Source: Gloeobacter morelensis MG652769
GTDB lineage: Bacteria > Cyanobacteriota > Cyanobacteriia > Gloeobacterales > Gloeobacteraceae
Assembly (NCBI RefSeq): GCF_021018745.1
Contig: NZ_CP063846.1
Span: forward strand, 90,017 to 114,016
Length of the DNA stretch: 24,000 nt
Reading direction: 5' to 3'
Shown: positions 1 to 14,477 of the stretch, in pieces
How positions within the stretch are numbered: the stretch's first letter is position 1
Layout of the letters: the number at the start of each line of letters is the position of its first letter
Made by a program: the position numbers and the translations under genes
Notes under the pieces: generated by a model
Told to the model about the DNA's origin: nothing
The model's input: the letters and a program-made list of their open reading frames with translations, nothing else
The model's database searches: none

Positions 1-250
1 GACGGACGGTTGAACCAAGTGACTCGCCCGAATTCGTGAATAGAACGGACTTTTCAGAAATTGCCCCCGCAGTTGCCGGTGCGCAGCTGGCCAGTGCCCG
101 CAATAGCTGCAGACACCGCGAACCGTAGGGAGTGGGTGTGCGGCACGCCATCACGTCACGAAGCGGGTATCGCTTCAAGATGGCGGCACCTTGAATTCCG
201 GGCGCAGCCCTATTGAGAAGAGGATCCTTTTTGTCTACAATCAAATTCAT
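1..250 (-). CDS. hypothetical protein, N-terminal part only (gene runs off the left edge)
   Basis: ATG at 250-248 on the minus strand, with GAAGGAGG (complement of 259-266) 8 nt upstream. The frame stays open for all 83 codons to the window edge (MNLIVDKKDPLLNRAAPGIQGAAILKRYPL...). It is absent from the ORF track because it has no in-window stop. No family recognised. Confidence 0.5.
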   Translation of the reverse strand, partial: MNLIVDKKDPLLNRAAPGIQGAAILKRYPLRDVMACRTPTPYGSRCLQLLRALASCAPATAGAISEKSVLFTNSGESLGSTVR

Positions 251-519
251 CCAGCGTGCCTCCTTCACACGTTGGTCCTGGGGTGCGCCCTGCGGAAGTT
301 CCTACGGCACGCCTCAGCTCTAGCTCTGCTTTCACTTTCCACGGTGGGGAGCAGAGTTTGAGATTTCGGCGCTCGCCTGAACGTCTTCGGTTTGGGCGGG
401 CCGTGGTTTTAGGTTACACCTATTTATTCCGCTCGTAAAGGGAAAATTGTGACGATTTTGGGCCACTTTTGCCGGTATGCCGCCCGTAGTAGACTGATTT
501 CTGTTGTCTGCTGGAGCCG

Positions 520-978
520 ATGAACCGGGCAAGCGAGCCGCCTGAAAAACTGGAAGGGGTGTGGACGCCTCGACAGTTGGCTGAACTTCTTGGGGTGTCG
601 CGCCAGACAGTGATCGACGCCATCAACGGCAAAGGAGCATACCCTAGGCCGTTGCGCGCCCAGAAAGCCGGTCAACTGTGGCTCGTCGCTGATCGCGATG
701 CACAGGTTTACCTTCACTGGGCGCGAACAGGGGAACTTTTGCCGCAACCCGATGCCCCACCAAAGCTTTACTGGACCACCGGCGAACTGGCTGCCGCCGC
801 TGGTGTCTCCACGAAAACCGTGAGCCATGCCGTCACCGGTTGGCGCAGCGGCAAATACGGCTACCCTCCCACACTGCCGGCGGTAAAGTTTGGCAAAATT
901 TGGTTGGTAAAGGATCCGCATGCTCGCGAATTCATCCAAGACAGGGCACGGGGAGGCGGACAAAAAGGTGATGGATAA
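520..978 (+). CDS. DNA-binding protein with two tandem excisionase/MerR-type HTH modules
   Basis: 152-aa ORF with an internal duplication. Module 1: WTPRQLAELLGVSRQTVIDAINGKGAYPRPLRAQKAGQLWLV. Module 2: YWTTGELAAAAGVSTKTVSHAVTGWRSGKYGYPPTLPAVKFGKIWLV. Each has the HTH_17/Xis-like pattern (HTH followed by a W-L-V strand). The antisense ORF 424-1023 has no motifs. Confidence 0.75.
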   Translation: MNRASEPPEKLEGVWTPRQLAELLGVSRQTVIDAINGKGAYPRPLRAQKAGQLWLVADRDAQVYLHWARTGELLPQPDAPPKLYWTTGELAAAAGVSTKTVSHAVTGWRSGKYGYPPTLPAVKFGKIWLVKDPHAREFIQDRARGGGQKGDG

Positions 979-1142
979 ACGTCGGTTCTGTACTGCAAAG
1001 GCATATTCGGACATCAAGACCATCTGCGTCCCCCTACGGATGCGGTGTAGTCGATCACTAAAAGACTAAAAATAAATTACTTGAGAGACAATTGTTCGTC
1101 TACTAGCTTTGACAACAGGTTCGAGCCAGCCTCCGGGGGAAT

Positions 1143-1784
1143 TCAGTCGAAATGTATTAGTCCTCTTTTTGCGGCTTCCGTAATAGCGCTGGCACGATCT
1201 CCAACTCCGAGTTTGCGAAAAATATTATCAGTGTGAAATCTTACTACTGACACAGACCGGTGAATGCGATCGGCGATGGCCGAGTCGGTTATGTTCGGTT
1301 CGGCAAGGAATACAAGTATTTCACGCTCCCTAGGAGTGAGGAGAGCGGCGCGATCCACCGACCGCTCGGCTATTGCGGGGGAGACGTAGGAAGCCCCTTG
1401 GTGCACCTGCTTGAGGGCGAAATATAACTCCGGTGCGCTAGCTCCCTTCAGCATGTATCCTTTTGCGCCAGCTTTCAGAGCGTGGTATATATCCTCGTCA
1501 GTTTTATACATGGTCAAAATGAGAATTTTTGCTTCTGACCATCTCCTGACGATGGTGCGTGTCGCTTCGGTCCCTCCCATCCCAGGCGGCATCCGTAGAT
1601 CCATCAAGACCACGCACGGTCTGCACTGCAAAACCTTGACAACAGCGTCAGCACCGTTATTAGCTTCGCCCGACACCCAAAAATAGCCGGATTCTTCGAC
1701 CAGAGCGCAGATTCCTTTGCGGATCAATTCTTGGTCTTCAGCAATAAAAACCGATATCTTTTCACCATGCGTGTTCATGGTCAC
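1143..1784 (-). CDS. response regulator, NarL/FixJ family (REC domain plus LuxR/GerE HTH)
   Basis: Receiver motifs are present (FIAEDQ..., phospho-acceptor context VVLMDLRMP, KILILT, KAGAKGYMLK). C-terminal LuxR-type HTH: LTPREREILVFLAE...IADRIHRSVSVVRFHTDNIFRKLGV. Start is GTG at 1784 (GTGA overlap with the kinase stop) or ATG at 1778. Confidence 0.9.
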   Translation of the reverse strand: MTMNTHGEKISVFIAEDQELIRKGICALVEESGYFWVSGEANNGADAVVKVLQCRPCVVLMDLRMPPGMGGTEATRTIVRRWSEAKILILTMYKTDEDIYHALKAGAKGYMLKGASAPELYFALKQVHQGASYVSPAIAERSVDRAALLTPREREILVFLAEPNITDSAIADRIHRSVSVVRFHTDNIFRKLGVGDRASAITEAAKRGLIHFD

Positions 1785-4012
1785 GCCACCTTTTCCGCAT
1801 AATCGGTGTCGATCAATAGACTTATTATCGTCCCGTTGCCAGGCCAGCTATCGATCGAAAGGTGGGCGCGAATTTCATCGGCGCGCTCCTTCATAATGAT
1901 CAGACCTTTGCCACCTGCAGATTGCTCATCTGAGCAGGGGTGTTCAGGATCGAAACCGCAACCGTTGTCCCTCACTTCGACAATTAGAGCGTCACGTTCG
2001 AACACCAAGCGTAAGTCTATCTCCGTAGCCCGGCCGCGCTCGATCGCATTAGTGATGGACTCTTGAACAATATAATAAATATTGATACCAACCTCAGGCC
2101 GGATTCGGAGGGCACCTCCTTCCCGCCCAAACCTGACCCTTGCATGGGAGTGGGAATCCCAGCGGCTGACAAGGCGGGCAAGGGTCGAATCGATATCTGA
2201 ATACTCGCCTTCGTCCGGCTTGAGGGAGCTCGCCGTTTTGCGCGTTTCGCGCAATCCAATATGCAGGTACACCTCCGCTTCTTCAAGCGCTGCCGAAACC
2301 ATGTCGGGATCCACGTCACGGCGATTGACGATTTGCTGGGCATGCTTAACTAGTTCGACGGCGCCGTAGAAATACTGTCCGATTTGGTCGTGATAGGCCC
2401 TTGCTAGCATGTTCCGCTCGTGCAGTGTAGCTGATAAGTGTCTGTTTTTTTCGATTTCCTTTTCGTTGGTAATATCACGAGTGATGCCGTAAATCATTTT
2501 GATTTGGCCGTGTTCGTAAACAGGAATGCTTGAGTTGAGTATCCACCGAATCTGGCCGTCAGGCCATTTAATACGAAACTCAGCATCGTGGCGATGGCTT
2601 AAACGCTCTGGAAATTGCTGCAAACACCTCTTGTAGTCTTCCGGCACAATGGCGTCAACGTGAGCATAAGGATTGCTGTAAAGTGCTTCTATTGGGCGGC
2701 GCCAGATCTTCTCGTACACTGGATTAGTGTAAAGGATGGTCATGCTGTGCGGGTCAAGTATATAAATCGCTTCGTCAAGATTTTCCAGGAACAATTCGAA
2801 TTGCTGCTTAGCTTTTAAATTTTCCGATTCGACGAATTTGCGTTCTCTCTCGGACTCTCCCAAATTCCAGTTCGGAACCGACAAAAGTATCAAGAACATA
2901 ACCACTGCACCAACAGCCGTTTCGGTCGTTCTCTTGCGAAGTCCCTCGACATGAAAAGACTCTTCGAACGAAGCAATTTCCAGCATGCCAATGGGCTTGA
3001 TATCAGGTGAAATGTAGTAGGGATCTTTGCGAATTTGCAGCCTGTGATCCCATAGTGGATGGACTGAGGCTCGGTACTTTCGCCCCCCCGTCACGATCTT
3101 TCCCCAAAATTCTTTGCCTTGTAAAAGCACCACTTTCCTTACTTCGCTTGGCGCTTTTGAACCGTACAACCTGGCGCTGGATTTTTCCTTCAGCATGTTT
3201 GTACTAATTCTTTCGTCAAGAGCATAAATCGATGCTGTATCTTCACCGTGGGATTTAATAAATTCGTCCACAACGGTTGGATCACCGTTTAATAATAAAC
3301 CCGCTACAGCGTACAAGCCGTTCATTTTTCTTGTGGCTACAATGGCCAGGCATTTGTGTTCCGCTTGTTTTCGCAGCCCTAGTTTTTCAAGGATAGGTAC
3401 TGAAATTAGTTCCGTTCCACTGAATCCTTCTCTATTATGATTGCGAGTCGTTTGAACAATATCAAATTCGTTTAAATAACTGCCGATGGCAACTTTTTCC
3501 TTTGTATGCTGATAAGCATTGCTTCTTAAGGACATTTCTGCGGGTACCCACCGCTCCTCTGTAATCGTATCCGGATCGATTCGAACGGGAACAGAAAAAG
3601 CGTCTTTTGTCTTTAAAAGTCGTCGGCTGGTTCCGGCAATTATTTTGCCCTTTTCATCAAGGAGCAGCGCAAAATTGTAGTTATGCTTTGTTAGTCTTTT
3701 CGACAATAATGTTTCGACTTCGGGCTCCCTAACCTTTTTTGGTGAACTCAAAATCATTAACATCAAATCTGCCTCTGCTTCGAGCATCTGTCTTTTTGAA
3801 CGCAGCATGTCTTCGAGTGATATTCGGTCTCCCTGATACCAGTATCCGGTCAAGCTCCAATAGAAGTTTGACAGCCAATTGTGTGTTGCGAAGGCTGTCA
3901 AAATTGCCACCAGAACCATAATGATAACGGCGCTAATCGACCAGCGCGCGCTGAACGACATCGTTTTAAAACTTTTCAACCATCTGTCAGAGTCGAATCG
4001 AAAGTTGTTCAT
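1781..4012 (-). CDS. sensor histidine kinase: 2 TM segments, large periplasmic domain, PAS, HisKA_3, HATPase_c
   Basis: 743 aa. TM1 is SISAVIIMVLVAILTAFATHNW and TM2 is AVGAVVMFLILLSV, flanking about 330 aa. PAS-like block: LDEAIYILDP...WPDGQIRWILNSSIPV...GITRDITNEKE. H-box is ARAYHDQIGQYF (NarX/DegS type). ATPase boxes: QESITNAIERG, VRDNGCGFD, GGKGLIIMKERA. The ATG at 4012 overlaps the permease stop (ATGA). Confidence 0.9.
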   Translation of the reverse strand: MNNFRFDSDRWLKSFKTMSFSARWSISAVIIMVLVAILTAFATHNWLSNFYWSLTGYWYQGDRISLEDMLRSKRQMLEAEADLMLMILSSPKKVREPEVETLLSKRLTKHNYNFALLLDEKGKIIAGTSRRLLKTKDAFSVPVRIDPDTITEERWVPAEMSLRSNAYQHTKEKVAIGSYLNEFDIVQTTRNHNREGFSGTELISVPILEKLGLRKQAEHKCLAIVATRKMNGLYAVAGLLLNGDPTVVDEFIKSHGEDTASIYALDERISTNMLKEKSSARLYGSKAPSEVRKVVLLQGKEFWGKIVTGGRKYRASVHPLWDHRLQIRKDPYYISPDIKPIGMLEIASFEESFHVEGLRKRTTETAVGAVVMFLILLSVPNWNLGESERERKFVESENLKAKQQFELFLENLDEAIYILDPHSMTILYTNPVYEKIWRRPIEALYSNPYAHVDAIVPEDYKRCLQQFPERLSHRHDAEFRIKWPDGQIRWILNSSIPVYEHGQIKMIYGITRDITNEKEIEKNRHLSATLHERNMLARAYHDQIGQYFYGAVELVKHAQQIVNRRDVDPDMVSAALEEAEVYLHIGLRETRKTASSLKPDEGEYSDIDSTLARLVSRWDSHSHARVRFGREGGALRIRPEVGINIYYIVQESITNAIERGRATEIDLRLVFERDALIVEVRDNGCGFDPEHPCSDEQSAGGKGLIIMKERADEIRAHLSIDSWPGNGTIISLLIDTDYAEKVA

Positions 4013-6417
4013 TTTAATTCACCTCGAATCGCTTGCATAGGTTCGGTTCTCGAAGCTTCGATAGCAGGCGCCATGCACGCGATCACAGCGACGGTCAAAA
4101 TCAGGGTAACCACCACTACGAGAACAACAGGATCGATCGCACTGAGGTTGTACATCGCACTTGAGGCCAACCGCGAGAGGATTAAAGTTGCGGCCGTGCC
4201 GATTCCCACTCCAATTAAAACGGGCCACATCCCCTGCCAGAGCATCATCAGAAGGATGTTCTGTCTTGTCGCTCCAAGAGCCATCCGCACTCCGATCTCC
4301 TGCTTGCGCAGCGAACTGGTGTAAGCGAGCATCCCGTAAATTCCCACGGCCGCCAGCGCAACAGACAGACCCGCGAATACCACCAGTACAATCCAGAGAA
4401 TTCTTCGTTGACCTAGCGATTTTTGGGCCACTTCCTCCTGTGTGGCCGAACTGCCTGTCAGTTGCGGTTCCATACCTAGCACGAGCCGCTCGATCGGCAA
4501 TTTGAGGCTCTCGGGCTGAGGGACCGTTTTAAAAACGAAGACAATATCCGGCCAGAGATCCTGTGCGTAAGGCCGATAGATTTGCATACCTCTTTCTTCT
4601 GTAAGGCTATTTTGCTTGATAGAGCCGACCGTCCCGACCACCGTCAACCACCCTTCGGCTACATCAAGCTGCACCCGCTGCCCGACTGGATCTTTATCTG
4701 GGAAACACTTGCGCGCTAGCGTATCGCTCATCAAGACTACCTGCCGTGATTTGGGGTCGTCCCTGCGCTCAAAAATCCTGCCAGCGTATAAAGGGATGCC
4801 CAGGGTGGCAAAGAAATCTGGACTGACCGAGGCGTAGTCTACCTCGAACGCTTTGTGGGCCGGCCGGCCCTCTATTGCAAGAATTTGTGCTCTGCTTTGG
4901 TACCCGCTGAGGGGAAGTGCTGTGGTCAAAGCGGAGTTCTGGACACCCGGCATGACCGAAGCTTCTTGGAGTACTCGGTCTGTGAACGCCAGGCGGGTAG
5001 AAGGTTGTGAATATCGTGCCAAATTTAGGGAGGTCTGGTACGTCAGCACGTTGCGATCTGAGTAGCCAACCGGGGCTGACTGGAGCCGGTAAACACCAGC
5101 AGTAAGTAACCCCGCCCCCGCAACGAGCACCAGAGCGATCGCTACCTCTGCAGCTATCAACACTCGAATCGTCCCCCCGGACCTGCGATCGACCATTTGC
5201 GGGTCATCTTTAAGAGCATGCAGTATTCCCTGCTCGGTTGCGGCCGCCGACGGAAGCAACCCGCAAAGCAAACCGCTGACGGCCGAGACGGCCAGGCAGA
5301 ATGCCAAAACCGGGGCGTCGATGGCTAGTTCTGCGAGCCGGTATGTACCTGAAGGCAATGCCGTTTTTAGCAACCCCAGGCCGGTCACCGCAACGAGTAT
5401 TCCTGCCAAACCACCGCAAATGCCGAGCAAAATATTTTCAACCATCAATTGCTGGAGCAGCCGTGCCTTGCTGGCGCCAAGAGCCATCCGCACCGCCAAT
5501 TCTTTTTTCCTGGCCGTTACAAGTGCCAATTGCAAACTGCCAACGTTCAGGCACGCAACAACTAATACGCAGACTACAGCTGCAAAAAGCATCCAGAGCG
5601 TGGGATCCAAATTGAGGAGCAACTCCTTCTTAAGCGATTTGACCTGGATACCATGCCCTGCGTTTGATCTTGGGTACTGCTTTGCCAATCGAGCAGCCAA
5701 GACCTCCATGTCCGCTTGCGCCCCGGCAATGTTGGTGGAATGGCTCAGCCGAGCGAACACCTGCAGTTCCAGGTGGTTGTTCCTGTCGTGCGGGTTCTCT
5801 ACCCCTGGCGCTGATCTAAGCGAATTGAGTAGTACGCCCAAAGGCAGCCAAAACTCTCCACTATTCAAAAATTCGAACCCAGACGGCATCACGCCAATCA
5901 CCGTGTACGATCCCGAGCCCAAGTAGATAGTTTTGCCCAAAATGTTGCCAGAGCCGCCAAACTTCTCAATCCAGCTGCGATGGCTTATCACCGCCAAACT
6001 AGCACCGACTTTGTCTTCCCTTGCGCTGAAAACCCTTCCAAGTATGGGTTTTTCACCCAGCATCGCAAACAAGCTGCTCTCGACATAGGCACCGTTTGTC
6101 CTCACGGCGTTCGGCCCGATTTTGAGGGAAGTTGCCAGCGCCCAGTAACCAGCCATTGAGGCAAAACTGTTGTTTTGTCCCTTCCAATCCAAGTAATTCG
6201 GGTAGGCGGAAGACAAGATCTTGCGCCCGCGCGTTTCGTAGATGGCTACCAGTTTGTCCGGTTCGGCATAAGGAAGAGGCTTGAGTACCAGGTGAAGGAC
6301 CGCGCAATACAAAGCGGTGGTTGCCCCTATGCCGAGGGCCAAAGTCAGCACCGCCACCAGCGTGGTAAGCGGTTTGCTTGTGAGCCTGCGAAAGGCGTAC
6401 CGCACATCGTCAAACAT
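4009..6417 (-). CDS. ABC transporter permease, duplicated MacB/FtsX type (ADOP-like, two FtsX modules and two periplasmic domains)
   Basis: About 800 aa. N-terminus MFDDVRYAFRRLTSKPLTTLVAVLTLALGIGATTAL is typical of MacB-type TM1. There are two 4-TM FtsX-like blocks (around residues 270-400 and 680-800), each preceded by a large soluble domain. ATG at 6417 lies 2 nt after the ATPase stop. An alternative TTG at 6423 overlaps that stop. Confidence 0.9.
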   Translation of the reverse strand: MFDDVRYAFRRLTSKPLTTLVAVLTLALGIGATTALYCAVLHLVLKPLPYAEPDKLVAIYETRGRKILSSAYPNYLDWKGQNNSFASMAGYWALATSLKIGPNAVRTNGAYVESSLFAMLGEKPILGRVFSAREDKVGASLAVISHRSWIEKFGGSGNILGKTIYLGSGSYTVIGVMPSGFEFLNSGEFWLPLGVLLNSLRSAPGVENPHDRNNHLELQVFARLSHSTNIAGAQADMEVLAARLAKQYPRSNAGHGIQVKSLKKELLLNLDPTLWMLFAAVVCVLVVACLNVGSLQLALVTARKKELAVRMALGASKARLLQQLMVENILLGICGGLAGILVAVTGLGLLKTALPSGTYRLAELAIDAPVLAFCLAVSAVSGLLCGLLPSAAATEQGILHALKDDPQMVDRRSGGTIRVLIAAEVAIALVLVAGAGLLTAGVYRLQSAPVGYSDRNVLTYQTSLNLARYSQPSTRLAFTDRVLQEASVMPGVQNSALTTALPLSGYQSRAQILAIEGRPAHKAFEVDYASVSPDFFATLGIPLYAGRIFERRDDPKSRQVVLMSDTLARKCFPDKDPVGQRVQLDVAEGWLTVVGTVGSIKQNSLTEERGMQIYRPYAQDLWPDIVFVFKTVPQPESLKLPIERLVLGMEPQLTGSSATQEEVAQKSLGQRRILWIVLVVFAGLSVALAAVGIYGMLAYTSSLRKQEIGVRMALGATRQNILLMMLWQGMWPVLIGVGIGTAATLILSRLASSAMYNLSAIDPVVLVVVVTLILTVAVIACMAPAIEASRTEPMQAIRGELK

Positions 6418-6419
6418 CG

Positions 6420-7154
6420 TCAATCCTTGTTGTTGCGCTCGCTCGCGGCCCCGGTCCTTGAAACCTGAGCAGGCCCTTGCCGGATGCGGCCATCGAGCAA
6501 ATGGACGGTGCGCTCTGCCCGACCAGCGAAGCGCGGATCGTGGGTGACCATGCAGATCGTTGCTCCCCCCCGGTGCAACCCACTGAGTAAATCCATCACC
6601 GCCTGGCCGTTGGCCGAATCGAGATTGCCCGTCGGTTCATCGGCAAGCAAAATGCCGGGCGCATTGACGAGGGCGCGGGCAACGGCGACGCGCTGCTGCT
6701 GACCACCGGACAGTTGGGCCGGGTAATGGCCCAACCGGTGAGACATCCCGACGCGATCGAGCACCTCGGCGACACGCTTTTTGCGCTCCCTTTGGCTTTG
6801 ATCCCGGTAGAGTAGCGGCAACTCGACGTTCTCGGCCACGGTCAGATCCCCAATCAGGTTGAATCCCTGGAAAATGAAGCCAATCTCTCTGTTTCGCACC
6901 GTAGCCCTTTCTAACGCCGACAAATGCCCCACGGATTTGCCGCGCAGGATGTATTGCCCAGCGCTCGGCGAATCGATCAGGCCCAAAATCGCCAGCAGCG
7001 TCGACTTGCCGCATCCTGACGGCCCGGCAATGGCTAGGAACTCGCCCGCGTCGACTTCCAAATCCACCCGGTACAACGCCCTTGTCTCTACCTCTTTTGT
7101 AATAAAAGTTCTCTCGATACCCTTGAGGACGACGAGTTTTTCTAGGGTTCCCAT
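6420..7154 (-). CDS. ABC transporter ATP-binding protein (MacB/LolD/DevA-like)
   Basis: Walker A GPSGCGKST, Q-loop FIFQ, signature LSGGQQQR, Walker B ILLADEPTGNLD, H-loop MVTHD. I chose the start at MGTLEKLVVLKG (ATG 7154-7152). The 334-aa track ORF extends upstream into the radical SAM gene with an Arg-rich, non-protein-like sequence. Confidence 0.9.
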   Translation of the reverse strand: MGTLEKLVVLKGIERTFITKEVETRALYRVDLEVDAGEFLAIAGPSGCGKSTLLAILGLIDSPSAGQYILRGKSVGHLSALERATVRNREIGFIFQGFNLIGDLTVAENVELPLLYRDQSQRERKKRVAEVLDRVGMSHRLGHYPAQLSGGQQQRVAVARALVNAPGILLADEPTGNLDSANGQAVMDLLSGLHRGGATICMVTHDPRFAGRAERTVHLLDGRIRQGPAQVSRTGAASERNNKD

Positions 7155-7207
7155 CTTGGCTATCCCTAACGACACGGTCTGCCTTTTGCCAGACTCCGTG
7201 CGGATTG

Positions 7208-8374
7208 TCAGGCAAAAGGATCGTGAAAAGCGTAGTGCAAATCGAGCCTTTGCCGGACAAAGCTTAAAAAATATTTGAGATCCTCGCAATAAACGGACAC
7301 ATTGTCGAAGCTTTTGTCTTCGCTGTATCTGTGGGACAAAAGCCCACCGCCGCAGACGCTCGCCCATTCGCACCGCCGGCAAGCGGCACATAGGCTGCCG
7401 GCGCGATCGAGCGACAACCGCCACAGGCGGTTGTCGAGCAAAGCGGCTACCGGATCGCGTTCGACGTGCAAGCCAGTTTTGGTGATCCCCTCGGCACAGG
7501 CTTTGAAGTACTCCGGGATTTCAAGGGAGCCATCAGTCTCGATCACCGCCACTCCCAACGGATTCAGTCCCCAAAAAGTGTGGGCGATCGATTTACCGAG
7601 CATGACCGCCATGGCGTCTTCGAAAAATCCCACGACGCGCGCAGGGTTGTCTTCTTCCAACCAGCAGCAAAACAGCCGAACAAGCCATTCGCCGTACCCC
7701 GTGCCGTGTGTTCGATCCGGGGGATACCGGTGGTTGTGATCCGGCAAAAGGATGTCCCATTGCTCGATGCCCAAGCCGCGCATATAAGCGTACAATTCTT
7801 CTGGTGGGCAGGCTGGGTTGACAACTGCAAGCACACCGCTGAAAATCCTTCGACCAGCTGAGCTAGAAAGTAACAACCGGATCGCCTTTTCTACCCGGTC
7901 GTGCGTGCCAAAACCGTTGCTGTCTACCCTGCGTGCGTCGTGATAAGCCGCAGGACCGTCCAAGCTGACACCAACGGCTATCCGCAGCTTTGCCAACAGG
8001 TCTATCCACCTGGAGTCCAACAGAATACCGTTGGTCTGTACTCCCAAAAGGTAGTTCTGCGGACCCAGGACTTCGTCAAAAACAGCGACAAGCTTTTCGA
8101 TGCGCTCTTTACCAAACAAAAGAGGCTCGCCCCCATGCAAAACGATGCGCACCGGCCCGCCTGCGTCTTCTTTTTGATGCTCTCGGATGCGCTGCGCGCA
8201 AAGCCTCACGGTTTGTTCGTCCATTACAAAAGGCTGACTGATATAAGATCTGTCAGCTAACTCATAAATATAACAGTAAGTGCACCGAAAATTGCATCTG
8301 CTTACAACTTTGATCACATAGTCGCTAACATGGTGCTCAACGCCTTTAGTGCTTTGTTCCATGACAATAATCAC
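7208..8374 (-). CDS. radical SAM/SPASM peptide-modifying enzyme, FxsB / three-residue-cyclophane (triceptide) maturase-like
   Basis: CxxxCxxC cluster in the context VSRCNFRCTYCYIYELADRSY. Also HGGEPLL, VQTNGILL and VSLDGPAAYHDARR. C-terminal SPASM cysteines: CAACRRCEWASVCGGG...SVYCEDL. The N- and C-terminal contexts match my recollection of the FxsB subgroup. Start is GTG at 8374 or ATG at 8362. Confidence 0.85.
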   Translation of the reverse strand: MIIVMEQSTKGVEHHVSDYVIKVVSRCNFRCTYCYIYELADRSYISQPFVMDEQTVRLCAQRIREHQKEDAGGPVRIVLHGGEPLLFGKERIEKLVAVFDEVLGPQNYLLGVQTNGILLDSRWIDLLAKLRIAVGVSLDGPAAYHDARRVDSNGFGTHDRVEKAIRLLLSSSAGRRIFSGVLAVVNPACPPEELYAYMRGLGIEQWDILLPDHNHRYPPDRTHGTGYGEWLVRLFCCWLEEDNPARVVGFFEDAMAVMLGKSIAHTFWGLNPLGVAVIETDGSLEIPEYFKACAEGITKTGLHVERDPVAALLDNRLWRLSLDRAGSLCAACRRCEWASVCGGGLLSHRYSEDKSFDNVSVYCEDLKYFLSFVRQRLDLHYAFHDPFA

Positions 8375-8380
8375 CGAATT

Positions 8381-8638
8381 TTAACTTGTTGCTTGGTTGG
8401 ATGATACAGGGGGGATTCTGCCCCTCGGAAAACCGATCATCCAGGTTTTTTCATCCTTTTTGATGATCTTGTCGATCACTTTGCTGGATTTCGCCGCTGC
8501 GTCATTTACCGTTTTGACCGCTTCGCAATAGATGGAGGCGGTTGCAATCAAACACGCAAGACTGATCAGCCCATACCCTCCAACCGTGCCACGCGAAGTA
8601 GAGATATTCTTGGTGTCATCCTTAATTTTCATGGCCAT
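8381..8638 (-). CDS. small protein (85 aa), candidate substrate/precursor or membrane partner of the radical SAM enzyme
   Basis: ATG at 8638 or 8632, preceded by GGAGAAG. The stop lies 6 nt before the radical SAM GTG. Sequence: MAMKIKDDTKNISTSRGTVGGYGLISLACLIATASIYCEAVKTVNDAAAKSSKVIDKIIKKDEKTWMIGFPRGRIPPVSSNQATS. It has one hydrophobic segment, a Lys-rich helix, and a C-terminal tail with aromatic-X-X motifs (WMI, FPR). The track's 111-aa version starts at a GTG inside the promoter region. Confidence 0.5.
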   Translation of the reverse strand: MAMKIKDDTKNISTSRGTVGGYGLISLACLIATASIYCEAVKTVNDAAAKSSKVIDKIIKKDEKTWMIGFPRGRIPPVSSNQATS

Positions 8639-8881
8639 CTTCTCCAAGGCAAGCACGGCCTGCCCACACGGCAAAATCTTAGTCCTGGAATAGCGATTTG
8701 GGAACCAGTCAAACACGCGATTTTCTGCGCAACCAATGAAAATGCCCGACCGAGAGAAAAAATAAATATATCTTTATATATTATTCAATTTTGAATGCAG
8801 GGCAAAGAGTTTTTGCCTCGGAAATTCGTTGACATGTTGGGGTGTAGTTTTATTCGCGATCTCTATTTCCTACCCGTTTGC
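8639..8881. promoter_or_regulatory. AT-rich divergent intergenic/promoter region between the small-ORF operon and the XRE gene
   Basis: Contains a locally very AT-rich stretch (aaaaataaatatatctttatatattattcaattttgaat, about 8757-8796). A perfect TTGACA at 8829-8834 is followed 16 nt later by TATTCG, facing the XRE gene. No experimentally defined site. Confidence 0.35.
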
Positions 8882-9136
8882 ATGTCGAATGTTCGTCTGC
8901 CCGGCGCCTACCACGATCTCTTGAAAAAATTGCGGACCGGTAGATTCGTTCAAGGTCTTACCCAGGCCGATCTGGCGAGACGCGCGCGTCTTACTCAACC
9001 GACACTCAGCCGCATCGAAGCGGGAACTCGCCCTGTGAACGTGCTTGAACTGTATGCTCTGTGCGAGGCGCTGCAGCTACCGTTCATAGAACTTGTCTCC
9101 CAATTCGCCGTTGAGATGCATAGAGAGTCACCTTAA
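8882..9136 (+). CDS. XRE-family HTH transcriptional regulator (short, HTH domain only)
   Basis: GLTQADLARRARLTQPTLSRIEAGTRPVNVLELYALCEALQLPF is a classic Cro/C1 HTH_3 pattern. I prefer ATG 8882 because the longer 8795 start lies in the AT-rich promoter region and contains the TTGACA box. Its stop shares the palindrome TTAA (9133-9136) with the convergent HlyD stop. Confidence 0.8.
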   Translation: MSNVRLPGAYHDLLKKLRTGRFVQGLTQADLARRARLTQPTLSRIEAGTRPVNVLELYALCEALQLPFIELVSQFAVEMHRESP

Positions 9137-10395
9137 TCGATAAGCGCGATCCTGTCGACGCCTTCTTGGGCCGACATGTCTGAGAGGATGGCCCGATCGC
9201 CCAAAGTCAGTCCTGAGAGTACCTCGATGGTGCTGACCGAGCCCTTACCGAGGCGCACCTGCACCCGCACCGCCTCGGTGCCGTCCTGGGTAAGCTTGAA
9301 GAGGCTTACGGTTTGTCCCTCGACCCCGAAGGCGGGCCGGCCGATGTAGAGCACATTGGCGACGCGCTCCAGTTCGACGGTGCCGTCCACGCTCAAATCC
9401 GGCCTGGCCCCCTTCGGCAGCGCTCCTAATAGCCCCACCTCCACCGTCACCGTGCTGTTTTGCACCGCAGGATCGATGCGCCTAACCCAGCCCACCACCG
9501 TGCCGTTGCGGGTGTCGACGAGGGCCGGTTGGCCCACGAGGATGTCCTTGGCCTGGGTTTCTTCTATTTTCACCTCCGCTTTGAGGGTTTTCGGGTCGGC
9601 CACCCGGGCGAGATCGGTGCCCTGCGCCACGCGCTGGCCCACTTCCAAAGGCAAAGCGACGAGCACTCCGGCCATTCCAGCGCGCACCGCCAGGGCGGCC
9701 ACCTGGCTGGTGCGCAGCCGCGCAAGCGAACGCAGTTGCTCAACTTTTGCAGCCTGTGCTGCGAGCTGGGCCTGCCTAGCTTCCACAGACATTTCCGAGC
9801 GCTCTTGTTCGATCGCTGAGCGTGTGGCCAGTTCCTCAGCTTTGACCGCCGAAAGCCTCGCTTGCAGTTCACCGATGAGCCCCTGGCGGGCTAGATCGTC
9901 GTTAACGCGCCGTTGCAGCTCGGCCTGACGGTAATCCGACTGGATTGCCGCCAGCGCCGCGCGCTGGGTGAGCAACTGGCCTGCGGTCTGCACGCGTAGG
10001 TTGGTTAGTTCTGCCTCAGCGGCCTTGAGTTGCAGCTTGGCGTCGATGGCGCTTTGTTCCAGTTCGGGATTGGCCAACTTCACCAGCACCGTCTCGGGGG
10101 CCACCGTGGCACCGGGGCGGACCAGAATTCCCTCAACCCGCCCTTCGCTTCGGGCCGGGATGCGACGGATCTTCTCCGGGACCAGAGTTCCGAGCCCCCG
10201 CACCTGGCGGATAAGTGTCCCGCGCCGGACGGTGTCGATCCATACGGCGGAACGCTCGACGGCAGGCGCGGCTGGTTTGAGATTTGCCGCCCCCAACATC
10301 GTCACCCCCACCGCCCCGAAAGTAGCCAGGGCGATGAGGGCAGCCCGCAACCGGCGGCTGGCAAGACTCGGTTTGTTGCGTGGGATATCCATCAC
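9133..10395 (-). CDS. HlyD-family periplasmic adaptor (membrane fusion protein, MacA/DevB-like)
   Basis: 420 aa. N-terminal TM anchor LRAALIALATFGAVGVTML. Lipoyl/barrel motifs (GTLVPEKIRRIPARSEGRVEGILVRPGATV, LVKLANPEL). Long coiled coil (AELTNLRVQ...AQLAAQAAKVEQLRSL). C-terminal beta-barrel (GQRVAQGTDLARVADP, ALVDTRNGTVVGWVRRIDP). Confidence 0.9.
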   Translation of the reverse strand: MMDIPRNKPSLASRRLRAALIALATFGAVGVTMLGAANLKPAAPAVERSAVWIDTVRRGTLIRQVRGLGTLVPEKIRRIPARSEGRVEGILVRPGATVAPETVLVKLANPELEQSAIDAKLQLKAAEAELTNLRVQTAGQLLTQRAALAAIQSDYRQAELQRRVNDDLARQGLIGELQARLSAVKAEELATRSAIEQERSEMSVEARQAQLAAQAAKVEQLRSLARLRTSQVAALAVRAGMAGVLVALPLEVGQRVAQGTDLARVADPKTLKAEVKIEETQAKDILVGQPALVDTRNGTVVGWVRRIDPAVQNSTVTVEVGLLGALPKGARPDLSVDGTVELERVANVLYIGRPAFGVEGQTVSLFKLTQDGTEAVRVQVRLGKGSVSTIEVLSGLTLGDRAILSDMSAQEGVDRIALID

Positions 10396-10529
10396 GAGTC
10401 TCCAAGGGGACTGCCTGCTTCAGCTGGCAGGGGAATTGGAGCGTCCGACACCAGTTGGACAAACCTTTTCGCGCAATAACTGAGTCTGGACACGCTGATT
10501 CTCCTGCGTATATGGGTTAAATTTAACGC

Positions 10530-11696
10530 ATGAACAGAACCGTTCGACTCCTGCTGCGCCCCACGCTGGAACAAGAACAAGCCTTGCTCGGTACTCTGGT
10601 TCGTTTCACGGACTGCTTCAACGCCGTCTGCGAAGCGGGCTGGCAAGACAGGCAGAAAAACGGCGTCGAACTCCACAAGCGCACTTACAGAGGCCTCAAA
10701 GACTCTCAGCCCGGTCTTGTCTCGGACCTGATTATTCAGGCCCGGGTCAAAGCGACCGAAGCCCTGGCGTCGGCGATTGCTCTGGAGAACAAAGGCAAGA
10801 AGGTCGGCCAGCCCAAGTCCAAGCTGTGCCCCGCCAGGTACAACGACCACACCTATCGGCTGAGCTGGCAAGCTTCCACCGTCAACATGTCCTCGGTCGC
10901 GGGCAGGCTCGCCATCTTGTTCGATGCGCCTGCCTGTGCCGCAAAATACCTGGGACACCCCACTGCGACCGCAGACCTCGTCCACCGCAAAGGGCGGTTC
11001 TGGCTGCACGTTGTGGTGGACGTGCCCACGCCAGAGGTCCAGCCGACCGCAGATGTGGTCGGCGTGGATCTCGGCATCAAGCGTCCTGCCGTCACCAGCA
11101 ACAACAAGTTCCTGGGCGAGCGGCGGTGGCGAAACTTGGAAGCAAGAACGTTCAAGTTGAAGCGGGCCCTCCAAAGCAAAGGCACCAAGAGCGCGAAGCG
11201 GCATCTGCGCAAGCTCTCCGGCAAACAGCTTCGCAGACGGAGGGACCACGACCACGTCCTGAGTCGGCGCATCGTCCAAGCCACCCCGGCTGGGGCGACG
11301 ATCGCCCTGGAGAATCTGACTGGCATACGCGGCCGGGCGAAGCAACGGAACAAAGGCGGCCACCAACGCCGCTTGCATTGCTGGAGCTTCGCTCAGTTGC
11401 GAACCTTCATCGAATACAAAGCCGAAGAAACGGGCATCCGGGTTGTCCTTGTGGACCCCAGGAACACCTCCAAGGCTTGTAATCGGTGCGGTCACGTTCA
11501 TCGGTCGAATCGTCCCTCTCAGTCGGTTTTCAGATGCAAATCCTGTGGCTGCGAACTGAACGCAGACTTGAATGCGGCCAGGAACATCCGCCTCAAGCAC
11601 CTTGCCAGCGTTGGCATGTCTGACGCTGGCGCGCCGTCGTCAACCGGCGTATCGTCTCGGTCTCCTTTGGGATCAGGGGCAAGCCGCCTGCTTTAG
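10530..11696 (+). CDS. tnpB: TnpB (OrfB_IS605) RNA-guided endonuclease / transposon accessory protein
   Basis: 388 aa. RuvC-I is VGVDLGIK, RuvC-II is TIALENL, zinc ribbon is CNRCGH...FRCKSCGCELNAD, RuvC-III is NADLNAARNI. N-terminus MNRTVRLLLRPTLEQEQAL is typical of TnpB. The 402-aa antisense ORF is an artefact. Confidence 0.92.
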   Translation: MNRTVRLLLRPTLEQEQALLGTLVRFTDCFNAVCEAGWQDRQKNGVELHKRTYRGLKDSQPGLVSDLIIQARVKATEALASAIALENKGKKVGQPKSKLCPARYNDHTYRLSWQASTVNMSSVAGRLAILFDAPACAAKYLGHPTATADLVHRKGRFWLHVVVDVPTPEVQPTADVVGVDLGIKRPAVTSNNKFLGERRWRNLEARTFKLKRALQSKGTKSAKRHLRKLSGKQLRRRRDHDHVLSRRIVQATPAGATIALENLTGIRGRAKQRNKGGHQRRLHCWSFAQLRTFIEYKAEETGIRVVLVDPRNTSKACNRCGHVHRSNRPSQSVFRCKSCGCELNADLNAARNIRLKHLASVGMSDAGAPSSTGVSSRSPLGSGASRLL

Positions 11697-11850
11697 CGGG
11701 CGGTCGTTGACCAGAGACCTGTGAGTGGGACCGCCAGCTAAAGCATGCCCTGATGACGGCATACGAAGAAAGTCGTATGCGGTCAATCAAAGCATGCAAC
11801 CCGATTTTTGTGTATCCACCACGCTTGCTAAATGCCTGCCGATGGGTAAA
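11640..11850 (+). ncRNA. putative TnpB omega-RNA (reRNA) scaffold overlapping the tnpB 3' end and right end; limits approximate
   Basis: A 17-position helix with one mismatch (11689-11705 pairs with 11729-11745) encloses the tnpB stop codon. A competing local hairpin at 11684-11703 includes a G-U pair. A second hairpin lies at 11755-11784 (8 bp plus 3 outer bp, loop AGAAAG). Direct repeat AAAGCATGC at 11740 and 11789. The position matches where TnpB guide RNAs are known to be encoded. Confidence 0.35.
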
Positions 11851-12034
11851 ATCTATTTGCAGCTGGTGGCGCAAGAAGCAGCGCTCTGGAGGCCAAAAAG
11901 CGTGAAGGTCGGCTGAGAGCCTGGGCCACCGCTTCGCTGACGCTCGCGGCGGCGGCATTGGCGGTGATGGGGTGGCCGTTGGCTCGTTAAACCTTCCGGC
12001 TGCGCAGAGTCAATCGCTATTGATGCGAATTTGT

Positions 12035-12092
12035 GATTGGGAAGGGGCAGAGGCTCTCACTGATGAGAGCCTCTGCAAAGCACCCGTTAATC
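12035..12092. repeat. hairpin element copy A (GATTGG...GCAGAGGCTCTC-loop-GAGAGCCTCTGC...GCACCCGTTAATC)
   Basis: Perfect 12-bp stem (12047-12058 with 12065-12076), 6-nt loop. The flanks are shared with copy B. Confidence 0.8.
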
Positions 12093-12210
12093 AAGAAGAA
12101 GCTGACGCCAGTAACATCATGATCATGAACACAAACCTGCGGGATCGCTGGTGCTCAGACCGTAGCCGCACACCACAAGACGGATCTGGCGAAATGGGCT
12201 CGGAAGCCCC

Positions 12211-12271
12211 GATTGGTTGATAGGGGCAGAGGATCTCAAGAAAGAGATCCTCTGCCATGCACCGTTAAATC
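12211..12271. repeat. hairpin element copy B (GATTGG...GCAGAGGATCTC-loop-GAGATCCTCTGC...GCACCGTTAAATC)
   Basis: Perfect 12-bp stem (12226-12237 with 12244-12255), 6-nt loop. It differs from copy A in the stem by one compensated base pair (C-G in A, A-T in B). Confidence 0.8.
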
Positions 12272-12363
12272 GCAGGAGGGTTGCGCCAAACCCTTCTGGC
12301 TCCCTCTGGGTAGAAAGAGTGGGTCGAAGCTGGTTGGCCGAGCAATAGCCCGTCCTCGTCAAA

Positions 12364-12765
12364 ATGTGCAGTTGTCTGCACATCGACTTCCAAGCCGCCA
12401 GAGGCAGGTTGGGTCGGACCGTCAGTTTCCACCAGCTGGCAGAAACTGACCATCCCTCCTGCCACGGAGGGATAGTATCGGATATGCACCCAGGCAGGTG
12501 CACCTTTTTCGTAGTTACTCCGTGAATGTCTCACGGAGAACTTGCTCTCCATGAGAGCGCACAATGGCTTTAAAAAAGCCATTGCTTCCGATCTATATCG
12601 ATCGGAAAGCGCCCCAAAGCGGACCCAAATGGGGTTCGGTCTGAGCTCTGAGGGGCGGTTTTCGTTCCAAGGAACGAAAACCCAGGGAGTCCCTTGGAAC
12701 CAGAACCTTGTTAGTTCTGGTTCCGCAAACCCAGCAGAAACGTTCGTCTTGAGAACGAACGTTTC
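12364..12765. repeat. run of 11 nearly abutting, sequence-unrelated perfect stem-loops
   Basis: Stems, all Watson-Crick: 12364-12383 (8 bp), 12421-12450 (9 bp), 12452-12473 (8), 12485-12502 (6), 12518-12538 (8), 12544-12558 (6), 12562-12584 (10), 12586-12607 (8), 12657-12682 (12, 26-nt near-palindrome), 12696-12724 (11), 12737-12765 (11). Confidence 0.85.
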
Positions 12766-12864
12766 CCCCTTCGACCGACTAAGGTGGGTGTTTTCCAGGG
12801 AGGCCGAGACCGAGACATTGATGGCAACCATAATCGCTCCTAAGAACCCGTTTATAAACAGTTG

Positions 12865-12921
12865 GTGAACGGGTTCCAAATGATGGACTTAAGACAAATC
12901 CATCATTTGGAACCCGTTCAC
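12865..12921. repeat. perfect 23-bp inverted repeat with 11-nt spacer
   Basis: GTGAACGGGTTCCAAATGATGGA (12865-12887), spacer cttaagacaaa, then TCCATCATTTGGAACCCGTTCAC (12899-12921). A third copy of GAACCCGTT at 12844-12852 can pair with the left arm instead. Confidence 0.95.
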
Positions 12922-13121
12922 TTTGCAGTAATCGACGGGATCATGGAGCAATACAACCCTTCTTCTTGATTTTTCAAGGTGCAACTTCGCAGCAGACTGC
13001 CACCACGGGGATTTCATCCCATCGCTCGTTGCCGGAGTCGCACCCAGATACCCTTCCTCCCTAAAGAAAGTAGGAGAAGGTCCACTCCAGAACTTAGCAT
13101 AGATTGAAGCCAAAAACAAGG

Positions 13122-13150
13122 GAGGATCGAGTTATAAAAACTCGATCCTC
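13122..13150 (-). terminator. possible intrinsic terminator of the small secreted-protein gene
   Basis: Perfect 12-bp stem GAGGATCGAGTT/AACTCGATCCTC with a 5-nt loop, starting 10 nt after the minus-strand stop at 13160. On the minus strand it is followed by CCTTGTTTTTG, so the T5 run is 5 nt from the stem and not immediately adjacent. Confidence 0.4.
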
Positions 13151-13159
13151 AAGTGCGCA

Positions 13160-13399
13160 TTATGGGGTTATTGAACGGCTAAATATAGCCGTTCCAAAAA
13201 CAGCAACCTCAAACGAGGTTGCTGTTTCGTGCACCTCAATCCAAGGTGCGGGAGCAGGTGCGGGAACCGTAGTTGAAAGTTCCACTTCCCAAATGGCTTG
13301 GGAGCAAATTTCTCCTTCGATAGGAGAGGGTAGCTGTGCATAAGCAAAACTACCGAAACCGACGAAGAAGACGAGCACAGCAAAAATGATCTTGTTCAT
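13160..13399 (-). CDS. small secreted hypothetical protein (79 aa, Sec signal peptide)
   Basis: ATG at 13399 with AGGAG 9 nt upstream. MNKIIFAVLVFFVGFGSFAYA|QLPSP... is a canonical signal peptide with an AxA-type cleavage site. The mature part contains PAPAPAP, encoded by the direct repeat AGGTGCGGGA at 13244 and 13256. The last ~20 codons run through two perfect hairpins (13173-13194 and 13198-13227). Confidence 0.5.
   Translation of the reverse strand: MNKIIFAVLVFFVGFGSFAYAQLPSPIEGEICSQAIWEVELSTTVPAPAPAPWIEVHETATSFEVAVFGTAIFSRSITP
13173..13227. repeat. two adjacent perfect stem-loops (9 bp and 13 bp) inside the 3' end of the small CDS
   Basis: GAACGGCTA-aata-TAGCCGTTC (13173-13194) and AAACAGCAACCTC-aaac-GAGGTTGCTGTTT (13198-13227). 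Confidence 0.9.
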
Positions 13400-13459
13400 A
13401 ATAAAGCTCCTGTAGGTAGACGGGGGAGATGAAATCGTGACCGTAGACCATAGGAGTCC

Positions 13460-13510
13460 GACGATCACTTTATGACAGTTTCACGAGTCAACTGCCATAA
13501 GGTGATCGTC
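13460..13510. repeat. 51-bp imperfect palindrome upstream of the small secreted-protein gene
   Basis: GACGATCAC...GTGATCGTC forms 9 perfect outer bp. The arms then extend inward to 13478 and 13492 with two mismatches. 13-nt centre. It sits about 60-110 nt upstream of the minus-strand ATG at 13399, so it may be an operator. Confidence 0.6.
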
Positions 13511-13714
13511 AGAAATCGTGAACAGGAAAGGCCGTTGCTTCCTCCTGCAAACCTCAAACTATGCGCACTATCCAAACCTTTTCTCGTTACCGGAGTCGAA
13601 CCCGACGGCACCTTCGCGCACGAAGTGGGCCTTTGTTCAAGCCTCCACCATGACAGGCGAATGTGTCAAGAGCCGCGGAAAAATTTCTGTGTCTAAAAGT
13701 CGCAAAAAAAAGAT

Positions 13715-13744
13715 TTTACAAAATGGCTCTGCGGGGAGTACAAT
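13715..13744 (+). promoter_or_regulatory. candidate sigma-70-type promoter for the plus-strand gene train
   Basis: TTTACA (13715-13720), an 18-nt spacer, then TACAAT (13739-13744), about 85 nt upstream of the ATG at 13827. By-eye match only. Confidence 0.3.
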
Positions 13745-13826
13745 CCCCGTCGTCTAAAAGGCCATAAAAAACCGGGGCCTATCCGCCAAGACCGACCCCG
13801 GCTACCCCACAAATCGGAGTGAAACC

Positions 13827-14477
13827 ATGGTACGCGATCCGCGTAACCGCGAAATTCGCGCGTTGCTAAATAACGATGTTCGCCTATTTATTTGGGCTCT
13901 GGTAAGACGCAGGCCCGAAGCTCATCATTTTCTGGCACTGGATCTTGCAGAGCGCGAACAGTGTTTCCAGATGGCCGCCTGGCTGGTATTGGCAAAAGGC
14001 AGCGATCACAAAGCCGCCGAATGTCCCGCGCAAGTGGGCTTTGCAGTTTACACAAAAATGATGGACCTGCTGCGCAACCGTGGCAAGAGTCGGCTCGGCC
14101 TTGGACTACGCGCCAAGTCCAACAGCTTCGAGAAAGGGCTTGTCCGGGGGTTAAGCCTCGAATACTTGGGAGAGTTTCCTGCGGTAGAGAATCTTTCAGA
14201 TAACCGACTGGAGATCAACGAAGCGCGCGAATGGTTGGTGAGCGAGCTGACCGCCCTGGGCAACACCGAGAGGGGAGCGGCCCTGGTACAAAAAATCTTT
14301 GCCACCAGAGAAGAGCGCATGCTCACTCTGATGCGCAGATCTAGAAGTACTCTCGTCCCCCTACTCAAAGCCGCTGCCGAGCAGACAGGCTGCGCCCGCT
14401 TGGCCGTGCGCGTGTTTTACGAAGCGGTAGAACACCTAAGAAGCCGGGGGCGATCCAAATTCGATCGGGCGGCGTGA
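13827..14477 (+). CDS. hypothetical protein, divergent sigma-70/ECF-like (paralog 1)
   Basis: 216 aa. Region-2-like segment DLAEREQCFQMAAWLVLAK...GFAVYTKMMDLLRNRGKSR. Region-4-like C-terminus (ARLAVRVFYEAVEHLRSRG). Shares the central motif RLGLGL with the next gene. ATG preceded by GGAGTGAAACC. Confidence 0.55.
   Translation: MVRDPRNREIRALLNNDVRLFIWALVRRRPEAHHFLALDLAEREQCFQMAAWLVLAKGSDHKAAECPAQVGFAVYTKMMDLLRNRGKSRLGLGLRAKSNSFEKGLVRGLSLEYLGEFPAVENLSDNRLEINEAREWLVSELTALGNTERGAALVQKIFATREERMLTLMRRSRSTLVPLLKAAAEQTGCARLAVRVFYEAVEHLRSRGRSKFDRAA

Follow-up and report, generated by a model that had tools for sequence, protein, structure and literature searches.

The window analysed here, a 24,000-nucleotide stretch of the genome of the cyanobacterium Gloeobacter morelensis MG652769, carries in its left half a group of genes built around a radical S-adenosylmethionine (SAM) enzyme and an 85-residue open reading frame (ORF) directly upstream of it (Table 1). 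Beside this pair stand genes for an ATP-binding cassette (ABC) ATPase, a duplicated FtsX-type permease, a HlyD-family adaptor, a sensor histidine kinase, a NarL-type response regulator and an XRE-family regulator. The locus is best fitted by a real ribosomally synthesised, post-translationally modified peptide (RiPP) type within the known triceptide class. We consider it probable, though well short of certain, that it is a triceptide-type locus, known so far only from Gloeobacter and close metagenomic relatives, that works by the full mechanism proposed below. It is marked by a precursor family that is new, a predicted Phe-Arg cyclophane, a signal- or anchor-type N-terminus on the precursor and a conserved sensor system. 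The source of the window is G. morelensis, since the enzyme is 100% identical to NCBI protein P0001 of that species; a Logan contig (L088) that equals window positions 1-12706 at 100% identity comes from the same genome and was therefore excluded as independent evidence.

Hidden Markov model (HMM) searches named every listed protein except the small ORF and bore out the inventory of an initial annotation of this DNA: all of its genes, including the three exporter genes (HlyD adaptor, ABC ATPase and duplicated FtsX permease), lie on the strands given there. The XRE gene that it placed opposite the small ORF is an HTH_3 gene, divergent from that ORF and convergent with the HlyD gene; its helix-turn-helix (HTH) domain begins near residue 42, and its true start may be the Met codon at 8882. 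The ATG of the small ORF has GGAG 6 nt on its 5' side, 6-18 nt separate the peptide gene from the enzyme gene and 53 nt separate the enzyme gene from the ATPase gene, after which the ATPase, permease, kinase and regulator genes follow one another with 4-nt overlaps when the longest start is taken for each ORF. Scans for promoters and terminators across the locus returned nothing above background, a hairpin between the enzyme and ATPase genes was not significant (z = -1.74), and Rfam and tRNA scans were empty. The peptide and enzyme ORFs share a reading frame, and between the former and the GTG at 8374 stand just a single TAA and two codons; the corresponding frames differ in a related locus (L082, below), and the in-frame arrangement of the window pair is probably coincidental.

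Table 1. Features of the proposed RiPP locus, numbered from the first nucleotide of the window
Feature	Position	Strand	Basis or remark
NarL/LuxR-type response regulator	1143-1784	-	Response_reg and GerE (Pfam)
Sensor histidine kinase	1781-4012	-	Transmembrane segment, sCache_3_3, transmembrane segment, PAS, HisKA_3, HATPase (Pfam domains)
ADOP-family duplicated FtsX/MacB-type permease	4009-6423	-	TIGR03434; two MacB_PCD and two FtsX matches
ABC ATPase, MacB/LolD/DarD type	6420-7154	-	Pfam ABC_tran; start 7154 read from the sequence
Radical SAM cyclophane-synthase-like enzyme	7208-8374	-	Likely start ATG 8362, giving the 384-aa NCBI protein
Putative precursor peptide, 85 aa	8381-8638	-	83 aa in the NCBI annotation (P0121)
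Peptide core W-M-I-G-F-P-R-G-R-I-P-P	8408-8443	-	Alignment of five peptides
Peptide leader-like helix SSKVIDKII	8462-8488	-	About 7 residues N-terminal of the core
Peptide hydrophobic signal/anchor-like segment, residues ~17-38, TVGGYGLISLACLIATASIYC	8525-8590	-	Kyte-Doolittle
AT-rich divergent intergenic region between peptide operon and XRE gene	8639-8794	none	Presumed promoter/operator, role assumed
XRE-family HTH regulator	8795-9136	+	PF01381 HTH_3, E 1e-11
HlyD/MFP periplasmic adaptor	9133-10395	-	HlyD_D23 and HlyD_3 (Pfam); separate transcription unit

The enzyme is closest to synthases that form three-residue cyclophanes. Among NCBIfam models it matched YhhB best, then FxsB, then XyeB (167 bits), and it scored 85-120 bits against the DarE and DynA models. 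In the PDB the triceptide synthase ChlB ranks first (9gm3; E 1.3e-58 over 361 residues, 13-373) and the anaerobic sulfatase maturase AnSME second (E 1.6e-28); homology to characterised enzymes that form three-residue cyclophanes (3-CyFEs), one mark of a triceptide system, is thus present. Radical_SAM (PF04055) matched with 59.5 bits against a cut-off of 29.5, and the C23-x3-C27-x2-C30 (CxxxCxxC) motif is kept in 80 of 81 aligned relatives. Four more cysteines (C328, C331, C337 and C359) occupy the ligand positions of AnSME auxiliary cluster II and are kept in 76-78 of the 81. The earlier description of a SPASM enzyme holds for these four ligands, but the Pfam SPASM model gave no match at E<=0.01 and the ligands of auxiliary cluster I are not conserved, the position of AnSME C330 being Leu in the window enzyme. 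C289 and C325 occur in only 22-25 of the 81 relatives and are both missing from ChlB. The doublet C232-C233 is nearly unique (C232 in no other aligned relative, C233 in three). As for the label FxsB-type, it caught the affinity to cyclophane maturases (YhhB 329 bits, FxsB 312 bits), but both scores lie below the curated cut-offs. FxsB enzymes have an FxsA-type neighbour, and precursors at true FxsB loci among the relatives have C-termini of the ...AAFSSSI type; the window peptide ends in ...SSNQATS, not FxSxx. Judged from its sequence, the enzyme is a relative of the YhhB and FxsB families and not a member of either. Protein searches returned no JGI homolog above 40% identity.

The small ORF drew no match from NCBIfam or Pfam models at E values up to 10, and a word-indexed protein search with the window peptide alone returned only itself. 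Homologous small ORFs nevertheless lie directly upstream of the closest homologs of the enzyme, namely P0002 (58% identity; locus L082), P0127 of G. kilaueensis (48%; L085) and P0005 (47%; L083), and the peptide of a further locus, L084, is a close variant of that in L082. With such neighbours present in L082/L084, L083 and G. kilaueensis, the small ORF is not just a chance reading frame, and from this pattern it is very probably the precursor. The five peptides, which represent four lineages (window, L082/L084, L083 and L085), align over a core in which G69, F70, R72, P76 and P77 of the window peptide are invariant. G-F-x-R is followed by P-P after 2-4 residues (WMIGFPRGRIPP, YVIGFRRFGPP, WLIGFPRDKPP and EPGFNRGPYRPP). 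The leader-like helix has counterparts in all four lineages (SKVIDKI in the window, STVLERV in L082, THILEKL in L083 and NSLLQNLL in L085) and resembles NKILERV and ALARLIEEV in precursors beside more distant homologs. All five peptides therefore have the make-up of aromatic-X-X precursors, with an invariant F-x-R, a leader-like helix and a place directly upstream of the enzyme gene.

These results change the picture drawn by the initial annotation, which saw no leader-type precursor and expected a non-canonical substrate. The former statement was too pessimistic, as the 85-aa ORF has a leader-like helix resembling those of YhhA/FxsA-type precursors and a conserved GFxR core. The latter stands as far as the N-terminal hydrophobic segment is concerned, but the leader-like helix and the core resemble known precursors. 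The retention of the adjacent small ORF beside the closest enzyme homologs and the cyclophane-maturase affinity of the enzyme both support its reading of the region as a RiPP locus.

The peptide family is small. A regular expression for the core motif, run over six frames of 84 loci (~1.6 Mb) and the window, with L085-L088 outside its scope, gave matches adjacent to radical SAM genes in this clade only, plus 7 scattered chance matches. A profile of three peptides searched against 5.8 billion clusters added one close variant, and a full HMMER search through 1.84 billion representative proteins yielded only three peptide clusters; two long repetitive proteins from the same search look like chance matches and were dismissed. 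The diverged peptide of G. kilaueensis escaped this search and came to light solely from its gene neighbourhood. No alternative precursor candidate was seen among ORFs of at least 20 aa around the enzyme gene, and a plasmid database held no real match.

The N-terminus sets these peptides apart from ordinary triceptide precursors. The maximum mean Kyte-Doolittle hydropathy over 15 residues was 2.1 in the window peptide and 2.6-2.8 in those of L082, L083 and L084, the peak being N-terminal in all four with K or R just before it, whereas 19 ordinary triceptide precursors reached at most 1.77 and had an N-terminal peak in no case. The G. kilaueensis peptide, which was outside the hydropathy scoring, shows a comparable segment (LVHTAILCAMLAVTL), and a hydrophobic region after K or R is found in all five clade peptides. 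In L082/L084 it reads as a textbook cleavable Sec-like signal, MKLSSVLLVVATLSVLVSA, with the cut expected between VSA and D. For RiPP precursors a Sec signal is described as a rarity, with bufferins the known case (PMC11626156). As far as the searchable literature shows, a signal- or anchor-like N-terminus has not been reported for radical SAM cyclophane peptides.

The probable site of cross-linking was read from a comparison set of at least 80 more distant homologs (33-42% identity) with 10-kb flanks, obtained by a contig profile scan with enzyme alignment; no Gloeobacter was among the matches listed. Where a comparison locus has an identifiable upstream small ORF, in most cases this encodes a classical triceptide-type precursor, placed upstream as in the window; the types are FxSxx-COOH (FxsA-like), SYNRTYNRHNR (YhhA-like, YNR/HNR), HxS and HSQ repeats, HTK (HtkA), YNK, YSK and YDK. 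HtkB D214 and HaaB H204 represent one shared position that steers X3 selectivity in the aromatic-X2-X3 motif (Phan and Morinaka, PMC11499958). Asp 214 of the Pandoraea HtkB ortholog (L022), within 'LLPDAN', aligns with D208 of the window enzyme, within 'ILLPDHNH', and ChlB, with the native motif YDR, has Asp at the equivalent position. Of the 14 loci that combine Asp in this column with an unambiguous motif, 13 have K or R at X3; five more Asp loci are mixed or ambiguous. With His or Leu in the column X3 is S, A, T or N and never basic. All five clade enzymes have Asp here, and this, together with the correlation between Asp and a basic X3, makes the invariant F-x-R the predicted cyclophane site. 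In the window peptide, on the strength of that correlation, the ring is probably F70-P71-R72, closed between the Arg beta-carbon and the Phe ring. A second ring at W66-M67-I68 is possible; the [W/Y]-x-I triplet is at most an optional second site because it is absent from G. kilaueensis. WprB, which makes a Trp-Arg C-gamma cross-link in W-P-R, was considered as a model on account of the F-P-R motif and rejected as the family, since it is a twitch-domain enzyme of the WgkB lineage.

One close homolog lacks such a peptide. The L001 locus, whose enzyme is 54% identical to that of the window, contains no GFxR peptide. A 68-aa ORF downstream of the enzyme gene (L001 9236-9442) ends in GGYMKYTRA, with two aromatic-x-basic motifs that fit the Asp of the L001 enzyme, and a 56-aa ORF just upstream (7801-7971), possibly what is left of a precursor, contains PRLLQLLV, similar to NSLLQNLLV in the leader of the G. 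kilaueensis peptide. Farther along come a TPR-CHAT protein and a conventional ABC exporter.

The sensory genes, which the initial annotation had counted as part of the locus, accompany the peptide-enzyme pair in a second species. In G. kilaueensis the pair is preceded by a homologous kinase (27% identity, E 2e-45, full length including the periplasmic sensor domain) and a homologous regulator (36% identity, E 2e-43), although the gene order differs from that of the window. Peptide, enzyme, kinase and regulator are the parts common to these two loci, the two with enough flanking sequence; the XRE gene is not conserved in G. kilaueensis, and L001 has neither the kinase and regulator nor the ADOP and HlyD genes. 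In the place of the pump, G. kilaueensis has a 306-aa Trypsin_2/PDZ (HtrA-like) protease without an obvious signal peptide, directly after the enzyme gene, and then a GerE-domain protein with a degenerate receiver-like N-terminus (L085 11414-13073). This protease is a candidate for removing the leader or releasing the peptide, and pump and protease would be interchangeable release modules.

The exporter genes themselves are well defined. The permease scores 787.8 bits against TIGR03434 (cut-off 622.3) over residues 5-802 of 804, and MacB_PCD and FtsX each match it in two stretches, which places it in the ADOP family. It is a cyanobacterial representative directly downstream of an ABC ATPase gene. 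The family is presumably named for Acidobacterial 'orphan' permeases without adjacent ATPase genes, and if so the window locus is an exception; we know of no function for ADOP-family permeases. The ATPase has DarD as its top NCBIfam match (246.6 bits, cut-off 375), followed by the MacB N-terminal domain and LolD. The adaptor reaches 88 bits against TIGR01730 (cut-off 94.9) and 47.6 against DarC (cut-off 450), and the DarB model gives 32.1 bits where 700 is the cut-off, so the scores of the DarBCD exporter equivalogs are not reached. That an exporter belongs to the locus, as first annotated, is supported by L082, where the N-terminus of an ADOP-type permease lies directly after the radical SAM gene (49% identity over 79 residues), but not by G. 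kilaueensis, where none is present. MacB-type transporters have no transmembrane path for the substrate and expel periplasmic substrates; enterotoxin STII, for example, is exported by Sec and then expelled by MacAB-TolC (PMC5985334).

The surroundings carry marks of mobile DNA. A gene for a TnpB-family RNA-guided endonuclease (10530-11696, plus strand; NF040570, 188 bits) lies directly 5' of the HlyD gene and may have severed it from the sequence that once preceded it; Rfam gave no hit at this element. The antisense ORF at 10392-11600 (minus strand), a 369-aa gene in the Logan annotation (L088 1206-2315), is probably spurious. From 12000 to 24000 the window holds plasmid-like orphan genes with weak mobile-element marks, namely DUF5895 (16283-17443), DUF2325 (19505-19876), bPH_2 (20335-20865) and a marginal MobC/Replic_Relax match (21719-22372), and otherwise these genes had no PHROG or NCBIfam matches. 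The G. kilaueensis locus adjoins the conjugation genes TraG and TrbI (L085 1-5934), and in both Gloeobacter species, it seems, mobile islands carry the peptide system. Between the kinase gene (44-49%), the surroundings of the peptide gene (47%) and the HlyD/TnpB region (61-63%) G+C content differs strongly, which suggests a mosaic or recently acquired origin. At the other end, just beyond the regulator gene, a 152-aa protein (520-978, plus strand), overlapped by an ORF at 424-1023 (minus strand), contains two HTH-like stretches (residues ~12-57 and ~86-105), each weakly matching many HTH families.

Gene identities, the affinity of the enzyme, a conserved peptide and core, and a two-component system and an ADOP permease that recur in relatives are the basis of a model whose chemistry, cross-link site, membrane topology, export route and autoregulation are predicted. 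In this model the enzyme would bind the leader-like helix SSKVIDKII of the 85-aa precursor, cleave SAM reductively and abstract a hydrogen from the Arg beta-carbon, which would then be coupled to the Phe ring of G-F-x-R to give a three-residue cyclophane with a mass loss of 2 Da; a second ring might form on W-M-I. A peptide this short would leave the ribosome before co-translational targeting, and modification would therefore take place in the cytoplasm. The N-terminal hydrophobic segment would afterwards carry the peptide into the inner membrane or through it by a Sec/YidC route, and would then be removed or retained. This route would substitute for a dedicated leader protease and transporter, and such self-routing would explain why a dedicated leader protease is absent. 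HlyD adaptor, ABC ATPase and ADOP permease would assemble into a pump of the MacB type, which would pick up the peptide in the periplasm or at the outer leaflet of the inner membrane and expel it. Control of the operon would lie with the Cache kinase, the NarL-type regulator and the divergent XRE regulator, and the signal might be the peptide itself.

Several observations weigh against this model. The enzyme falls short of the cut-off of each family closest to it, although both alignments are essentially complete: 329.1 bits against 445 for NF041707 (YhhB; protein residues 19-378 on profile positions 4-366 of 369) and 312.5 bits against 370 for TIGR04269 (FxsB; end to end). Only four independent lineages carry the peptide, which makes the conservation statistics thin, and among the comparison loci L011 is a clear exception to the X3 rule, combining an HSQ motif with Asp. 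An AxA-like (small-x-small) signal-peptidase site is clear only in L082/L084, and by their sequences the other peptides look more like uncleaved signal anchors. The pump is missing from G. kilaueensis, which has the protease instead, and from L001; because of these absences it is an accessory module and not part of the core. Its HlyD gene is a separate transcription unit with the TnpB element on its 5' side, and the window contains no gene for an outer-membrane factor. In the divergent region 8639-8794, scanning found neither a consensus sigma-70 promoter nor an inverted repeat.

Some of the same observations suit other explanations. The peptide, the radical SAM enzyme, the Cache kinase and the NarL regulator are the only parts that both Gloeobacter loci have in common, the pump is dispensable in G. 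kilaueensis, and in three of the four lineages a hydrophobic segment of transmembrane-helix length comes without a clear signal-peptidase site. The small protein could then be a single-pass membrane protein (N-in, C-out) that is not secreted and whose periplasmic tail, modified by the radical SAM enzyme, modulates the Cache kinase or is read by it. Such a protein would be like MgrB or SafA, and peptide, enzyme, kinase and regulator, as the conserved unit, would make up a signalling device. The textbook cleavable signal read in L082/L084 argues for release, as does the joining of the peptide-enzyme pair to a MacB/ADOP-type exporter in both the window and L082, and the characterised products of the enzyme family are all released peptides (PMC12912966). 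On balance a membrane-bound partner of the kinase is unlikely. The pump and the two-component system, for their part, could form an independent module for sensing and resisting antimicrobial peptides or drugs, similar to BceAB-RS or MacAB, which merely lies beside the two-gene RiPP cassette or provides immunity in place of export. MacB-family pumps and FtsX-type permeases with two-component systems are classical resistance modules (PMC5985334, with references to Dintner et al.). In 80 distant loci no ADOP or HlyD homolog occurs within 10 kb of the enzyme among the matches listed, and the G+C contrast between the kinase gene (44-49%) and the HlyD gene (63%) suggests a mosaic origin. Such independence is rather improbable, however, since the genes are packed tightly on one strand from the enzyme gene to the regulator gene (53 nt, then the 4-nt overlaps), a homologous two-component system accompanies the G. 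kilaueensis pair where there is no pump, and an ADOP permease again directly follows the radical SAM gene in L082. Immunity and export are, moreover, compatible.

The enzyme might instead act like an anaerobic sulfatase maturase on a full-size protein exported by Sec, in which case the small ORF would be irrelevant. GenBank labels the G. kilaueensis ortholog AGY57257.1 'anaerobic sulfatase-maturase', AnSME is the second-ranked PDB relative, and AnSME acts on substrates that bear signal peptides before their export. Against this stands a score of only 150.8 bits with TIGR03942, where the cut-off is 349, well under the scores with YhhB and FxsB. A sulfatase gene is missing from both the window and L085, the ligands of AnSME auxiliary cluster I are not conserved, and a conserved small ORF with an aromatic-x-Arg core always lies immediately upstream. 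The scores and the lack of a sulfatase gene essentially exclude the sulfatase-maturase annotation, a result in line with the initial annotation's assignment of the enzyme (329 and 312 bits against 151), and we give this explanation almost no credence.

The triceptide model can also be carried a step further. The peptide, its radical SAM synthase, the Cache kinase and the NarL regulator may constitute a four-part signalling circuit on mobile islands in an early-branching cyanobacterial lineage, with the kinase sensing the peptide. The ring would be closed in the cytoplasm, the Sec-type N-terminus would route the peptide, and the pump in G. morelensis or the protease in G. kilaueensis would release it. 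We hold this circuit to be rather unlikely; if it exists, it would be the first triceptide with a signal-peptide precursor, two-step export and a dedicated receptor. Set against some 3,900 predicted triceptide pathways, the natural products, export routes and physiological roles established for the class are few. To this field the clade offers a new core motif, G-F-x-R...P-P, with its predicted Phe-Arg cyclophane, a co-conserved kinase and regulator that could show what such peptides do, and a candidate substrate for an ADOP-family permease. The value for RiPP enzymology is incremental, and would be larger if the signalling or the two-step export reading were true.

Among known systems the locus resembles most those of the triceptide 3-CyFEs ChlB, YhhB, FxsB, HtkB, HaaB and XyeB. 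It shares with them end-to-end homology of the enzyme, a small precursor gene directly upstream whose product has a leader helix and, after it, an aromatic-X-X motif, and an Asp at the position that specifies X3, as in HtkB, YhhB-like enzymes and ChlB, whose targets are Lys or Arg. It differs in that its enzyme lies below the curated cut-offs of every named family and its precursor family is new, with just one G-F-x-R...P-P core in place of repeats or a C-terminal FxSxx, and with an N-terminal hydrophobic segment seen in none of the 19 comparison precursors. A further difference is that the locus is linked with a Cache kinase and a NarL regulator, and in two of the lineages with an ADOP/MacB-type permease as well. 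Darobactin and dynobactin loci (DarA, DarBCD, DarE) likewise join a precursor and a radical SAM cyclophane enzyme to an ATPase, an FtsX-type permease and an adaptor, with no dedicated protease, and DarD is the best NCBIfam match of the window ATPase. The scores nonetheless separate them (85-120 bits with DarE and DynA; 247 of 375, 48 of 450 and 32 of 700 bits with DarD, DarC and DarB), the window core has neither the W-x-W nor the W-x-K daropeptide motif, and the window adds a two-component system and a signal-like N-terminus.

Two other systems correspond to the proposed route of the peptide. Bufferin precursors of ~75-120 aa have an N-terminal Sec-type signal, are modified in the cytoplasm and leave by the general pathway (PMC11626156), as the window peptide may do. 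They are modified by an MNIO/DUF692 enzyme instead of a radical SAM enzyme and carry thiooxazoles instead of a C-C cyclophane, and bufferins have no pump or two-component system. The pump, in turn, departs from MacAB-TolC in its duplicated ADOP-type permease, which lacks an ATPase domain and is served by a separate ATPase, and in the absence of a TolC-like gene from the locus. It would share with the export of STII the passage of a small peptide to the periplasm by Sec followed by expulsion through a MacB-type and HlyD-family assembly (PMC5985334), the substrate in the window being suggested by gene linkage only.

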